Shown piece after piece: positions 44,595 through 53,125 of a DNA stretch of 64,000 nt. The notes under the pieces were generated by a model, which was not told the origin of the DNA, made no database searches, and saw only the letters and a list, made by a program, of their open reading frames with translations. A program made the position numbers and the translations under genes. This DNA is from Candidatus Eiseniibacteriota bacterium (GTDB lineage: Bacteria; Eisenbacteria; RBG-16-71-46): positions 128,001-192,000 of the forward strand of contig CAVQXP010000002.1 of NCBI GenBank assembly GCA_963717935.1. Direction: 5' to 3'. Numbering within the stretch: position 1 is the stretch's first letter; each line of letters begins with the position of its first letter.

Positions 44595-45479
44595 TCAGCG
44601 GGCTTTGCGGGCGGAGGGTGCCCGTGGAGTCCGGGCCCCGCGGGGGCCGGACCCGCCGCCCTGGCAGGAGGGACAGTAGAAGGTGGAACGCTGTCCCTGC
44701 ACGATGCGGCGGACGGGAGTGCCGCACCGGCGGCAGGGCTCGTTCGCCCGGTCGTAGACCTGGAGCAACTCGCCGTACTGCCCCGGCTCGCCCCAGACCG
44801 TGCGGTAGGTGCTGAAGGTCGTGCCCATCCGCGCGATGGCCTCGGCGAGCACGGCCCGGATCTCGGTCGCCACCGCCTCCCACTCGCGCAGCGCGAGCCG
44901 CCCGGCATGGCGCCGCGGATCCAGTCCGGCCCGGTGCAGCACCTCGCTCGCGTAGATGTTGCCGAGTCCCGCGATGCGCCGCTGGTCCATGAGGAACGTC
45001 TTCACGGCCACCCGGGACCCGCGGGCCACGGCGCGCAGTCCCGCGCCCGTCGGTGGCGCGGCCACCGGGTCGGGGCCGAGCCGCGCGAGCGCGGGATCGC
45101 GCCCGAGGTCCGCAGTAGGCACGAGACGCAGCAGGCCGAAGCGCCTCACGTCCTGGAACCAGAGCCCGATGCCGTCGGTGAATCGGATGCGGGCGTGCAC
45201 GTGGGGCAGCGCCGGGCGCTCGCCCGGGCGCAGGACCAGCCAGCGCCCGCTCATGCCGAGGTGGGAGAGGAGCGTGAGGCCGCCCTCGAGCCCGAAGAGC
45301 AGGTACTTCGCCGTGCGCTCCACGCGCTCGAGGGTGCGCCCGCGCAGCAGGCGGGGCAGCGTGGCCGGGATGCGCTCGCGCAGCCTGTGCCCCGAGAGCG
45401 TGACGGAGCGGATCGTGCGCCCGCGCACGCTCTCGTCCAGCATGCGGCGCACCGTCTCGACCTCGGGCAGCTCGGGCAT
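44595..45479 (-). CDS. mutM: Formamidopyrimidine-DNA glycosylase
   Basis: MPELPEVET, HLGMSG, GLGNIYASE, zinc finger CRRC..YCPSCQ. Confidence 0.96.
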   Translation of the reverse strand: MPELPEVETVRRMLDESVRGRTIRSVTLSGHRLRERIPATLPRLLRGRTLERVERTAKYLLFGLEGGLTLLSHLGMSGRWLVLRPGERPALPHVHARIRFTDGIGLWFQDVRRFGLLRLVPTADLGRDPALARLGPDPVAAPPTGAGLRAVARGSRVAVKTFLMDQRRIAGLGNIYASEVLHRAGLDPRRHAGRLALREWEAVATEIRAVLAEAIARMGTTFSTYRTVWGEPGQYGELLQVYDRANEPCRRCGTPVRRIVQGQRSTFYCPSCQGGGSGPRGARTPRAPSARKAR

Positions 45480-45571
45480 GGCGCGACGGTAGGGGCGCGA
45501 GTGGGAGGGGCGCAAGCGGCGTGCGAATGGACCGGCTGCCCCAGTGTACGCCGTCAATTCACGGGTGCCGG

Positions 45572-46287
45572 TTGTCCACCGATCCTCCGCTAACTACAGC
45601 TCACCTGCGTCTGCTGCGTATGCACCGCGGCCGGATCACCGATCCTGAGCAGCACATCGAAGCGCCCCGGCCCGGCTTCCTGCTCTGCCAGGACACCTAC
45701 TTCGTCGGCACCATCAAGGGCGTGGGGCGGATCTACCAGCAAACCGTGGTCGACGCTCACTGCTCGCTGGCCTTCGCCAAACTCTACCTGTCGAAGGTGC
45801 CGATGACCGCGGTCGATGTGCTCAACGATCGCGTGCTGCCGTTCTACGACGAGCATGGCGTCGAGGTCGCGCACCTGCTCACCGACAATGGAAGGGAAAC
45901 CTGCGGGAAGCCGCTGTCGCACCCCTTCGAGCTCTTCCTGGCGATCAGCCGAATCGAGCACCGGCGCACCCAGGTGGGCTCGCCGGAGACCAATGGCTTC
46001 TGCGAGCGATTCCATCGGACGGTGAAGGAGGAGTTCTACGCCGTCACCTTCCGCAAGAAGGTCTACGAGAGCATGGACGAGCTGCAGCGGGACCTCGACG
46101 CCTATCTCGCGTTCTACAACCGCGAGCGCACTCACCAGGGCTACCGGACCCAGGGCAGGACGCCCCACCAGGCGTTCCTCGACGGCATCGAGGCGATGCG
46201 GAAGACGGAGGTGACACCCGAGGCCGCTTAGGCCAGAATCAGCCGCCACCGGGGCGCCGTTTGTCCACCGATCTTCCGCTAACTACA
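45572..46287 (+). mobile_element. 5'-truncated IS481-family element bracketed by two direct copies of its right end
   Basis: Transposase core QDTYFVGTIKGVGRIYQQT, LTDNGRE, PETNGFCERFHRT, YNRERTHQG (stop 46231) without the N-terminal HTH; TTGTCCACCGATCYTCCGCTAACTACA at 45572-45598 and 46261-46287. Confidence 0.85.
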
Positions 46288-46300
46288 CATGAGGGCCGGG

Positions 46301-47306
46301 ATGAGCGCAACGTCCTTTTGGGTACAAGGGGAGCCGGCCACCTTCGCGACTTCGGGCGAGGCGTCTTGGAAGGAGCGGCTGCTCGAATGTGCTCCGCCTC
46401 CAGCGCTCGCCGGACGTGAGACAGGGATGGACTTGCGCTTTTCAGTTTCATCCCTCCGGCGGAACGGTCAGCCATTTGACGTCGACAACCTCTGCGACCC
46501 GGTGTTCGTCGTTGTCATCCGCAAGGCGGGTTGGTTCGGGGGTCGCAAGACGGGACTCTCCTGGTGGTCCGCGACCAAGCGCCTTGGCCAGCCACCTGGT
46601 TGCCAGATCGCTATCCACGTGACGCGGACCATATCTCTTCCCACGCAGAGCCCGTTCTTGGGACCAGCTCTATTCCGGGCCGATGCCCGAGAAGGCGACA
46701 TCTCTCGAACTTCCTCGCTGGGCGCTCGAACTTCGAGCCGCTCGGGCCGTCGACTGGATTCCCGAGAGCTGCTTTCTCTACCTCGGCTTCGCGGACCCGA
46801 AGGTGAACATCGGCGAGATCTCTACGGGTCGCGTCAAGGCAGTCGTCGACTGCCTGTACCCGTGGCTGGGTGGCACCGCGAAAGACCCGGAGGATTGGCG
46901 GGTAGAGACCCTCGTGGTCGAACGGGGGCTCGACAGTCTTCCACGGGGCACCCTCCATATTCGCCTGTGGGAGAAAGGTCGTATTCCTGCAACCCTCCCC
47001 GACGTGGCGCTCGTGTCAGCCAGTAGAAGCCGGAGTGCCCATGTGCCCATCATGTCCGGCCACGCGCAACCACCAGGAAGACTCGCCACGCAAAACCCTT
47101 GCCGTGAGGGCACTGCGATGTGGATTGTCTGTGAAGCTGCGCTCGCGCGGAAAAGCCTCGCGGAAGTGCGCGCCGACTTGGAACGTCACGCGACCGGCGC
47201 GGGCGCACGGCTCTTCGAGTACAAAAGTGACCTACGGAACGAGAAGAGGCTCGACATCCGGATCGAAGGCGACCGCATAGTGTGCTATGGCTCGCTCAAG
47301 CGATAG
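46301..47306 (+). CDS. Tandem RusA-like protein with C-terminal helical domain (one extra base near 46661)
   Basis: Repeat 1 FWVQGEP..WKERL..FDVDNLCDPVF..KAGWF..KRLGQPPGCQIAI; repeat 2 ..KAVVDCL..PEDWRVETLVVER..GTLHIRLW; removing one G of GGG 46660-46662 joins ORFs 46289 and 46683 into 334 aa. Confidence 0.6.
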
Positions 47307-47381
47307 AGGCTGCTGGCGGGGGACGAGTGGTCTGGCCGCGCGCTGCAGCGCCAGCGTTGGGCGGAAGATTGAACATCGCGC

Positions 47382-47897
47382 ATGGTGATTCTCAGAGCGA
47401 CGCGAAAGCTCGAAACACAGCTCTTGGGCTTCGGCACTACACCCGACGTGTCTGACACGGCGCTCGGCGATTGGTATGCCAACCGCCTGGTCGTGGACCG
47501 TCGGCCATTGCTGCTTCTGGTGAGTTCGGCGTCCCTGCTTTCCGTGGTGTCGCTCGCTAGGGACGTCCGTGGCTTGCCCGCACGCTTGCCCGCCATGGTG
47601 AGTCGAAGGCTCCGCGCCATGGGGTTAGCAGCGTCCCTCATTGAGGCGGAGTTGGCGGCAATGGACCCTGTCCAGGTCGGCCGGACGACCGATCGGTCTG
47701 TTCTCGGTAGCATGGTTGACTTCGCGAAGGCAATAGTGGCCTACCTTCCGCACGGAACTTGGGGGGAGCCGGACCTGCCCCGGGTTGAGGAGCTTCTTGC
47801 GCAGACCCCGTGTCGCGTGACCAGCCGCTTAGAGGACACGGTGTATCCGGACAGGAAGACCCGGGAGGTTCTTGCGGCCCGGTGGCGTACTGCTTAG
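47382..47897 (+). CDS. DUF6933-like protein
   Basis: MVILRATRKL..ALGDWYAN..RRPLLLLV..TTDRSVLGSM..LAQTPC pattern, recognised from memory of the family. Confidence 0.65.
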   Translation: MVILRATRKLETQLLGFGTTPDVSDTALGDWYANRLVVDRRPLLLLVSSASLLSVVSLARDVRGLPARLPAMVSRRLRAMGLAASLIEAELAAMDPVQVGRTTDRSVLGSMVDFAKAIVAYLPHGTWGEPDLPRVEELLAQTPCRVTSRLEDTVYPDRKTREVLAARWRTA

Positions 47898-48118
47898 CTT
47901 CCCGCCGCCGCGGACGCTCGCGGGCGCGGCGGGGAACTCTCCCCCCTTGTTGGACGCGGGAGTCTGACTCTTCCAGCAGCCGCCCGCGGCGCGACTCCCG
48001 CTCCCTGCACGTCCGTTCCCGGCGCCCTCGGCCCACCCGCCCTGTTCGTTGCACTGCGCTCGCGCTCCGTGGCATCCTGCGCTCGTCCACGATGGACCCT
48101 TCCCGCACGGGAGAGCGC

Positions 48119-53048: not shown

Positions 53049-53125
53049 GGGGTTGTAGTTCAGTTGGTTAGAACGCCTGCCTGTCACGCAGGAGGTCGCG
53101 GGTTCGAGTCCCGTCAACCCCGCCA
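53049..53125 (+). tRNA. tRNA-Asp (GTC)
   Basis: 77 nt; acceptor stem GGGGTTG/CAACCCC, anticodon arm CCTGC-CTGTCAC-GCAGG, T loop GGTTCGAGTCC, encoded CCA. Confidence 0.97.

Follow-up and report, generated by a model that had tools for sequence, protein, structure and literature searches.

A frameshifted gene in an Eisenbacteria genome belongs to a family of single-chain RusA-like proteins with catalytic motifs split between two halves

RusA is the textbook minimal Holliday junction resolvase. It is typically borne by phages, and it needs a symmetric homodimer to make its two cuts. It is reportedly being engineered for programmable cutting. The sections of PMC1636454 on which we draw describe the RusA monomer as a mixed sheet of four strands, one side of which carries two helices, place the dimer interface between the sheets, and assign the cation site to D70, D72 and D91. 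The same sections describe an arginine-rich minor-groove loop (residues 66-69) and a flexible loop (residues 15-28) that hold the DNA and the junction centre (PMC1636454). Here, we have analysed a 64,000-nt stretch of DNA from Candidatus Eiseniibacteriota bacterium (assembly GCA_963717935.1, contig CAVQXP010000002.1, positions 128,001 to 192,000; hereafter the window, with position 1 its first letter), and we describe a broken gene at 46301-47306 whose intact relatives are predicted to carry two diverged RusA-fold units, halves 1 and 2, in one chain.

As listed, the gene appears as two open reading frames (ORFs). An earlier note on this DNA proposed that the removal of one base joins them into one gene, which is borne out both by unbroken relatives on which the two pieces abut and by the coding phase. 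Third-position GC shows that the coding signal is split over two plus-strand frames: it peaks in the phase of ATG 46301 up to ~46620, and from ~46760 to the stop codon at 47304-47306 it peaks in the phase of 46659/46683. The start codon lies 5 nt behind a GAGGG. The first frame begins MSATSFWVQGEPATFAT, reads through to QSPF, and then stays open to 47026 without coding signal, giving an out-of-frame extension of ~125 residues. The second frame, which contains WDQLYSGPMPEK, is open for 228 codons (46623-47306). By arithmetic at 63% GC, the chance of this for a random frame is ~0.002, so the break either inactivated the gene recently or arose as an error in the assembly.

The position of the break is given by comparison with relatives. 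The second ORF as query found eight of them, three of which are unbroken and also span the first ORF (P0002, 333 aa; P0003, 338 aa; P0009, 337 aa); at the break these three read SPF-WDE.Y.GP. When the window's pieces 46301-46657 (ending QSPF) and 46659-47303 (starting WDQLYSGP) are aligned with them, the pieces abut exactly between F and W (alignment A1), so that the surplus base is 46658, one T too many in TTC-T-TGG. The earlier note had instead taken the surplus base to be a G within 46660-46662. Removing that G also mends the frame, but it gives L where close relatives have W; the relatives put the surplus T at 46658/46659, which keeps the W. Dropping one base near 46660 yields a product of 334 codons, and the closest relatives of the window protein, P0004 and P0007, are 76-83% identical to it. 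We conclude that 46301-47306 on the plus strand is one gene of ~334 codons with a 1-nt insertion (T 46658/46659), and that the two ORFs should be annotated as one frameshifted gene and not as two hypothetical proteins.

The single chain is the common form of this family. A profile search over 1.84 billion representatives, clustered at 50% identity, returned 341 clusters at E≤1e-3, 254 at 1e-10 and 137 at 1e-30. A typical member has ~220-235 residues that match profile positions 5-224, which is both halves only. In an alignment of 148 rows, 127 have both halves in one chain (89 with the core only, 19 with an N-terminal extension, 18 with a C-terminal extension and one with both), and the 21 half-only rows include the window's own two pieces. 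Intact single-chain relatives, by which the earlier note had proposed to check its prediction, therefore exist, and the halves are not always two unlinked genes. Among the half-only entries, P0105 (117 aa) is half 1 only, and P0038 (213 aa) has a methionine directly ahead of the W that opens half 2, just where the window copy is broken; both may be true split genes or fragments.

The conserved residues of the family fall into two sets, one in each half. In the window copy, half 1 reads PFDVDNLCDPVF followed by KAGWFGG and half 2 reads GRVKAVVDCL followed by PEDWRV, the motifs that the earlier note had quoted. Over the 148-row alignment, half 1 conserves G10 (121/123), P12 (118/122), E20 (115/124), D60 (134/138), D62 (128/139, with E in four more), N63 (132/139), E/D66 (128/139), P67 (132/140), G81 (118/142) and R/K83 (130/142). 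Half 2 conserves N169 (128/140), D/E172 (110/140), K179 (137/142), D183 (138/141), G190 (136/140), P196 (131/134) and D198 (135/137). Seven positions (D60, D/E62, N63, D/E66, K179, D183 and D198) are all kept in 111 of the 127 two-half rows, and the window copy keeps all seven, with D at 62 and 66. The split of the motif between the halves, first noticed in this one gene, is thus a property of the whole family and not a quirk of one copy.

Structural modelling links both halves to RusA. The AlphaFold2 model of P0002 (148 aligned rows; mean pLDDT 92.6, pTM 0.74) contains two beta-alpha-beta-alpha-beta-beta units, at residues 4-106 and 120-229. Half 1 is made of strand 4-9, helix 20-30, strand 42-49, helix 61-75 and strands 88-95 and 100-106. 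The window's half 2 modelled alone (46659-47006) has a pLDDT of 96.7. After half 2 comes a linker in which ten-residue blocks over residues 231-260 of P0002 average a pLDDT of 43-76, with residues 248-259 below 50; it is unconserved in alignments A1 and A3. When the whole P0002 chain was compared with the PDB by Foldseek, the RusA entry 1q8r_B was matched at a probability of 0.99, TMt 0.65 and rmsd 4.1 Å, with 17% identity over 118 columns, and 2h8e and 2h8c came next. This match probably covers half 1, as its statistics are unlike those of half 2 alone. For half 2 alone, the RusA entries 2h8e, 1q8r_B and 2h8c_A were matched at probabilities of 0.99-1.00 and TM 0.52-0.57, the highest TM among the matches listed. 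RusA is the solved fold that superposes best (TM 0.52-0.65). In BFVD, 22 of the 50 matches listed are named RusA, Rus or Holliday junction resolvase and 25 are unnamed, while the other three carry other names at low probability. Two kinds of match ranked above RusA by E-value for the whole chain, cyanuric acid hydrolase (the 'Toblerone fold') and FBXO22, but with TM 0.16-0.22 and an rmsd of ~13-14 Å; cyanuric acid hydrolase was rejected as a candidate for this reason. On these models both halves are predicted to have the RusA fold; the earlier description of two RusA-shaped repeats is upheld for half 2 by Foldseek, and for half 1 by the whole-chain match together with a profile alignment.

That alignment was made with hhalign against E. 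coli RusA, taken from a K-12 record. The half 1 profile (136 rows) aligned to RusA with P 2.3e-4 and a probability of 44% over 61 columns, figures that a deeper profile might improve, the RusA alignment being shallow (106 rows, with all 120 relatives listed at least 68% identical). D60, D62 and N63 fall on D70, D72 and N73 of RusA, E/D66 falls on K76, and G80 falls on D90, so that G81 stands at D91. The corresponding P values were 0.034 for half 2 against RusA, 0.033 for half 1 against half 2, and 0.11 for the C-terminal tail against RusA, the two comparisons of half 2 and of the tail with RusA serving as controls; forced global alignments were unreliable in the helix-2 region. Half 1 is thus related to RusA in sequence, if remotely, and only the predicted fold makes half 2 recognisable. 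Since the halves have no detectable similarity to each other, the duplication or fusion that brought them together would be old.

Taken position by position, half 1 has D60, D62 and N63, an E or D at the place of K76, and G-G at the place of D90/D91. By motif alignment, half 2 has K179, D183 and D198, and I/T/G at the DxDN positions. The full set of D70, D72, K76 and D91 is present in neither half and is complete only across both. How such a split could still make a metal site is suggested by the RusA D70N dimer, in which, according to the sections of PMC1636454 used here, a hydrogen bond joins N70 of one subunit to D91 in its partner. From this bond each metal site of RusA is inferred to span the dimer interface. 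If so, complementary retention of residues by the two halves would leave one of the two sites in a fused pseudo-dimer.

The covariation between the halves was examined as mutual information with average-product correction (APC) over 111 sequences, and 7x7 inter-half blocks (n=11,025, overlapping) were ranked. The analysis recovers plausible strand pairings within half 1 (R46-C99, A48-G96, S5-D104). Between the halves, the covarying pairs are F59-W199, S51-E202, G56-E202, F69-Y186, W89-V206 and R82-A167. The block 56-62 x 196-202 ranks in the top 3.1% of the 11,025 by mean and in the top 0.8% by its top three pairs, and the block 78-84 x 169-175 is in the top 0.8% by mean; the same-half block 56-62 x 78-84 is at the median. 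The loop ahead of D60 thus covaries with the loop around D198, which weakly supports a composite site.

We propose that two diverged RusA-fold units, arranged head to tail in one chain, would form a pseudo-dimer in place of the homodimer of RusA; in the subfamily of the window's gene, a flexible linker and the winged-helix-like tail come after them. Each chain would have one RusA-type Mg2+ site, built from D60, D62 and N63 of half 1 and D198 of half 2. The mirror-image site may have been remodelled and not erased, with K179, D183, N169 and D/E172 facing the basic GG-x-R loop of half 1. Such a protein could act as a DNA endonuclease, Mg2+-dependent and structure-selective, that cuts once each time it binds, that is a nickase and not a paired-cut resolvase, and the C-terminal tail could add affinity for DNA. 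Of the readings considered here we find it the most likely, at about even odds, that the window's gene is a broken copy of such a pseudo-dimer, whose intact form would have a single composite acidic metal site, single-cut Mg2+-dependent endonuclease activity and a tail that adds DNA affinity. The fold and the chemistry would be of a known type; what is new is the asymmetric single-chain architecture and the family itself. No report of a tandem or pseudo-dimeric RusA was found in the literature searched, which excluded subscription journals and supplements.

Several observations weigh against this proposal. Foldseek gave no PDB match at E≤1e-3 for the whole chain or for half 2, and IspF and cyanuric acid hydrolase beat RusA by E-value, with TM of only 0.16-0.37. 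By sequence, PF05866 is reached by only one of the 148 family members, at E 0.13, and no RusA was found in a profile search of PDB sequences (Cdc37, at E 0.34 in the same search, was dismissed as a chance match). With hhalign, no similarity of half 2 to either RusA or half 1 was detected (probability 1.5%). Since half 2 is not aligned to RusA by profile, two of the equivalences drawn in the earlier note, K179 with K76 and D183 with D80, come from the motif only; the equivalence of D60/D62/N63 with D70/D72/N73 stands by profile. The K76 position is acidic in half 1, and the geometry of the helix would assign K179 to the mirror-image site, not to the acidic one. The equivalent of RusA loop 15-28 is ~11 residues shorter (an hhalign gap), and the family consensus has no run of arginines ahead of D60 where RusA has its loop 66-69. 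With these loops missing, the substrate may differ from a RusA-type junction. The covariation gives a weak signal that phylogeny confounds, and a block lying within one half, 169-175 x 196-202, ranks high as well (1.4%). Finally, the copy in this window is broken.

Some of the same observations would fit a catalytically dead pseudo-dimer, a module that binds branched or duplex DNA as a sensor, adaptor or regulator, with a winged-helix tail in this subfamily and effectors supplied by fusion or by neighbouring genes. That neither half holds the full D70/D72/K76/D91 set favours such a module, as do the effector-like fusions to HEPN_AbiU2, GNAT and DUF6946 (1/148 each) and the finding, in the sections of PMC1636454 used here, that the RusA D70N variant still binds junctions. 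We nevertheless think it unlikely, because four acids and K179 are near-invariant across bacteria and archaea, which is the pattern of a metal site and not of a binding surface; moreover, 89 of the 127 two-half members are core only, without an effector domain, and there is no conserved partner gene. It is also conceivable that two pseudo-dimers associate to give two active sites and a true Holliday junction resolvase like RusA. In the same sections, RusA-fold enzymes are described as two-fold symmetric dimers (PMC1636454). A complex prediction for two copies of the core (P0002 residues 1-232, A3) scored 0.00, which is no evidence either way. Winged-helix tails, for their part, often dimerise. 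Since no sign of self-association was seen in this analysis, and since complementary residue loss is hard to explain under selection for symmetric paired cutting, we consider this arrangement very unlikely.

A reading of another kind is that the acidic cluster acts on a nucleotide, another small phosphoester or RNA, and that the likeness to RusA reflects a shared two-layer alpha/beta scaffold. IspF, a cyclodiphosphate synthase, does give the best Foldseek E-values for half 2 (down to 1.7e-3, at probabilities of up to 0.99), and the DNA-binding loops of RusA are missing. We judge it highly improbable all the same: IspF superposes at TM 0.24-0.37 against 0.52-0.57 for RusA, the DxDN motif carries a sequence alignment of half 1 with RusA, the named viral matches in BFVD are nearly all RusA resolvases, and the tail as modelled is winged-helix-like. 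Lastly, the two ORFs could be natural here, the halves being separate polypeptides that reassemble or the products of ribosomal frameshifting. The half-only proteins P0038 and P0105 would be precedents for the former, but they may be fragments from contig ends, and single chains are found in 127 of 148 rows. Moreover, the first frame would carry its ~125-residue out-of-frame extension to 47026, the only start of the second frame is ATG 46683, which would cost half 2 its first strand, there is no known shift motif at the site, and the full-length relatives are all unshifted. We find a natural split scarcely credible.

The C-terminal domain of about 70 residues claimed in the earlier note is confirmed in outline by the P0002 model, which shows helices 272-281, 286-296 and 300-314 followed by strands 317-322 and 325-331 (residues 272-331, ~60-70 aa). 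Foldseek matched this tail to the BlaI DNA-binding domain 1p6r (probability 0.93, TMt 0.49) and to Fur 4ray (probability 0.82, TMt 0.32), the ESM Atlas gave weak MarR/HTH_5 leads at 0.75, and there was no Pfam match; the modelled tail may be described as winged-helix-like. When the tail (262-333) was used as query in a region search, nothing beyond P0002 and one close relative was returned. The same ~70-residue domain, with the motif NPCR.G...DLR.E..LD, is carried on an unrelated N-terminus in P0008 (231 aa) and stands nearly alone in P0146 and P0149 (126 and 138 aa), which makes it a mobile module.

Other domains have been joined to the tandem core elsewhere in the family. Besides the three single fusions named above, DUF7669 is found in 7/148 rows, at the N- or C-terminus; the fusion-bearing proteins include P0151, P0043, P0089 and P0053. 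All four fused domains are uncharacterised or of conflict type, and DUF6946 is named as a new dark family in the part of PMC10584680 that we draw on. The core itself has no family in Pfam, NCBIfam, PADLOC or PHROGs, against which the window ORFs and family members were scanned, and the window ORFs had no Pfam or NCBIfam match at E≤1. In the ESM Atlas the top matches are the family's own unnamed clusters; one match, at 0.83, is an archaeal cluster of 194 aa, 42% of whose members have PF05866. A tblastn search with P0002 gave no match in 72,556 plasmid records (PLSDB) or 50,697 phage records (INPHARED).

The features of the locus are collected in Table 1. The window has a GC content of 71.8%, and the gene lies in a low-GC island. 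The gene order is a DEAD-box helicase gene (minus strand), fpg (minus strand), the island, a SIS-domain (MurQ-like) gene and a gene for a solute-binding protein; within the island, an IS481-family transposase remnant, the tandem RusA-like gene and a DUF6933 gene follow each other in that order. The Pfam match of fpg begins at residue 27, and its true start is probably near 45479, which would leave ~80 nt to the island. At 36 nt, the direct repeat around the transposase remnant is too long to be explained as a target-site duplication; being direct and not inverted, it could be an insertion sequence (IS) end or a recombination scar. There is no tRNA gene at the island border, the nearest being tRNA-Asp at 53049. 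PDC-S63, which the DUF6933 gene matches, is a single-gene defence candidate of PADLOC and is here a neighbour only; the tandem gene itself has no PADLOC match.

Table 1. Coordinates of the tandem RusA-like gene and its surroundings in the window
Feature	Position	Strand	Basis
fpg ORF as listed	44595-45557	-	TTG start, 26 codons 5' of the MPELPEVE start expected for Fpg
Low-GC island, GC 0.62-0.65 against 0.69-0.78 in the flanks	45550..47900	.	Composition; between fpg and the SIS-domain (MurQ-like) gene
36-nt direct repeat, 92% identical, around the transposase remnant	45563-45598 and 46252-46287	+	Two copies in the window, 0 expected
IS481-family transposase remnant, C-terminal part only	45599..46231	+	NF033577 E 3.6e-49, model positions 117-284 of 284; Pfam rve_3
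Shine-Dalgarno-like GAGGG and start codon	46291..46303 (GAGGG 46291-46295, ATG 46301)	+	Start shared by relatives (MSTTLFWV, MSVTSFWV)
Half 1, residues 1-119, predicted first RusA-fold unit: G10-x-P12, E20, D60-V-D62-N63, D66, GWFGG	46301..46657	+	Translation, A1, model, hhalign
Frameshift site, surplus T (TTC-T-TGG) in the inter-half linker	46658..46659	+	Abutting pieces; coding-phase switch
Half 2, residues 120-232, predicted second RusA-fold unit: Y-x-G-x-x-P, N169, E172, K179, D183, D198	46659..46997	+	Translation, AlphaFold, Foldseek
Linker, poorly conserved, low model confidence	46998..47114	+	P0002 model pLDDT; A1/A3 alignments
Modelled C-terminal three-helix, two-strand domain, winged-helix-like, and stop 47304-47306	47115..47306	+	Model, Foldseek
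DUF6933 gene, intact, 75 nt 3' of the tandem gene, same strand	47382..47897	+	PF22016 E 1.2e-28; PADLOC PDC-S63 (PDLC05054) E 3.8e-12

To compare this setting with others, 32 genome loci were taken from a search with a 30-row alignment (A3). They come from bacterial and archaeal metagenome-assembled genomes (MAGs), with hosts that include Methanoperedens, Nitrosopumilus, Bathyarchaeota, Eisenbacteria, Planctomycetes, Bacillota, Chloroflexota, cyanobacteria and others. The matched stretch is free of stops in 28 of the 32, a count that includes L030, which holds half 1 only. The family copies of L026, L032 and L033 have frame breaks, and L031 has a single stop where the alignment overshoots the gene end. 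In L030 (196-1712) the gene ends after half 1 and IS3 transposase genes are next. These broken copies (L026, L032, L033 and L030) suggest either that the gene decays frequently or that the MAG assemblies contain errors. The longest ORFs through the match are 1093 codons in L007 (2366-5647) and 575 codons in L006 (4927-6654), and their extra part has no Pfam domain; either the genes are large fusions or the ORFs were called too long in high-GC DNA, and the 1093-codon call is doubtful, as the stop-to-stop frame through the match in L007 has only 342 codons.

No partner is conserved among the 183 neighbouring ORFs of the 32 loci, and DUF6933 is found within 2.6 kb of the family gene in none of them. 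Restriction, toxin-antitoxin, defence or transposase genes lie within the same distance in 13 of the 32, by raw count. These neighbours are KwaB (L004), Mrr (L006), PIN (L009, L011), RES-Xre (L012), HsdR (L014), an overlapping Eco57I-type methylase (L018), CAP12-TIR and a transposase (L021), HerA/FRG/HsdR (L024, where the family gene lies between FRG and HsdR), McrBC directly upstream (L026, L027), YhcG nuclease and MazF (L028) and IS3 (L030). Four more loci are ambiguous, with HD (L002), a phage-type HTH (L017), Fic (L019) and PD-(D/E)XK (L031). Such scattering among restriction, toxin-antitoxin and mobile genes points to an accessory role, perhaps in defence. A bolder proposal, which we would not expect to hold, is that the family is an undescribed monomeric nickase, widespread in bacteria and archaea, that serves as a stand-alone or restriction-associated weapon against branched intermediates of phages and mobile elements and has targeting or effector domains that can be exchanged for one another (winged helix, DUF7669, HEPN, GNAT).

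If the composite-site proposal is true, the family would illustrate the evolution of a one-cut enzyme from a paired-cut resolvase. A dark family of at least 341 clusters at 50% identity in bacteria and archaea would also gain a function and a structure, and structure-guided nicking would have a small monomeric scaffold to build on. The McrBC and type I/II restriction neighbours, together with the HEPN and conflict-type fusions, make a role in defence testable.

Among known systems, the nearest is E. coli RusA and its family PF05866. Each half of the tandem protein resembles it in having, in the models, four strands in a mixed sheet and two helices to one side of it. Half 1 has D-x-D-N at the start of helix 2, and G-x-P-A-T where RusA has P-P-S, while half 2 has an acid ahead of strand 3, at the place of RusA D90/D91. 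The differences are as plain. RusA is a homodimer of ~120-residue subunits, whereas the family has one chain of two diverged halves, without the full catalytic set in either half, with an acidic residue at the K76 position of half 1, and with only the one marginal PF05866 match given above. It also lacks the arginine-rich and the long flexible loops, and in this subfamily it has an extra winged-helix-like tail. RusA is typically carried by phages; the family is found in chromosomes of uncultured bacteria and archaea, and none was found on the phages and plasmids searched by tblastn. PDC-S63/DUF6933 shares the low-GC island of the tandem gene, but it is unlinked to the family in the 32 other loci.

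Two better-known groups of nucleases offer partial analogies. XPF-ERCC1 and Mus81-Eme1 are alike in that a two-fold nuclease scaffold has one surviving centre and makes single cuts on branched DNA, as we propose for the tandem protein; they have the unrelated ERCC4 fold, however, and are made of two chains in eukaryotic or archaeal repair complexes. The LAGLIDADG homing endonucleases occur both as homodimers (I-CreI) and as monomers (I-SceI, I-DmoI). In these, as would be the case here, a homodimeric nuclease became a single-chain pseudo-dimer by duplication and fusion, which left the halves free to diverge. Their fold is unrelated to that of RusA, and LAGLIDADG enzymes usually keep both centres and cut both strands, whereas the tandem RusA-like protein would have kept one centre and would cut one.

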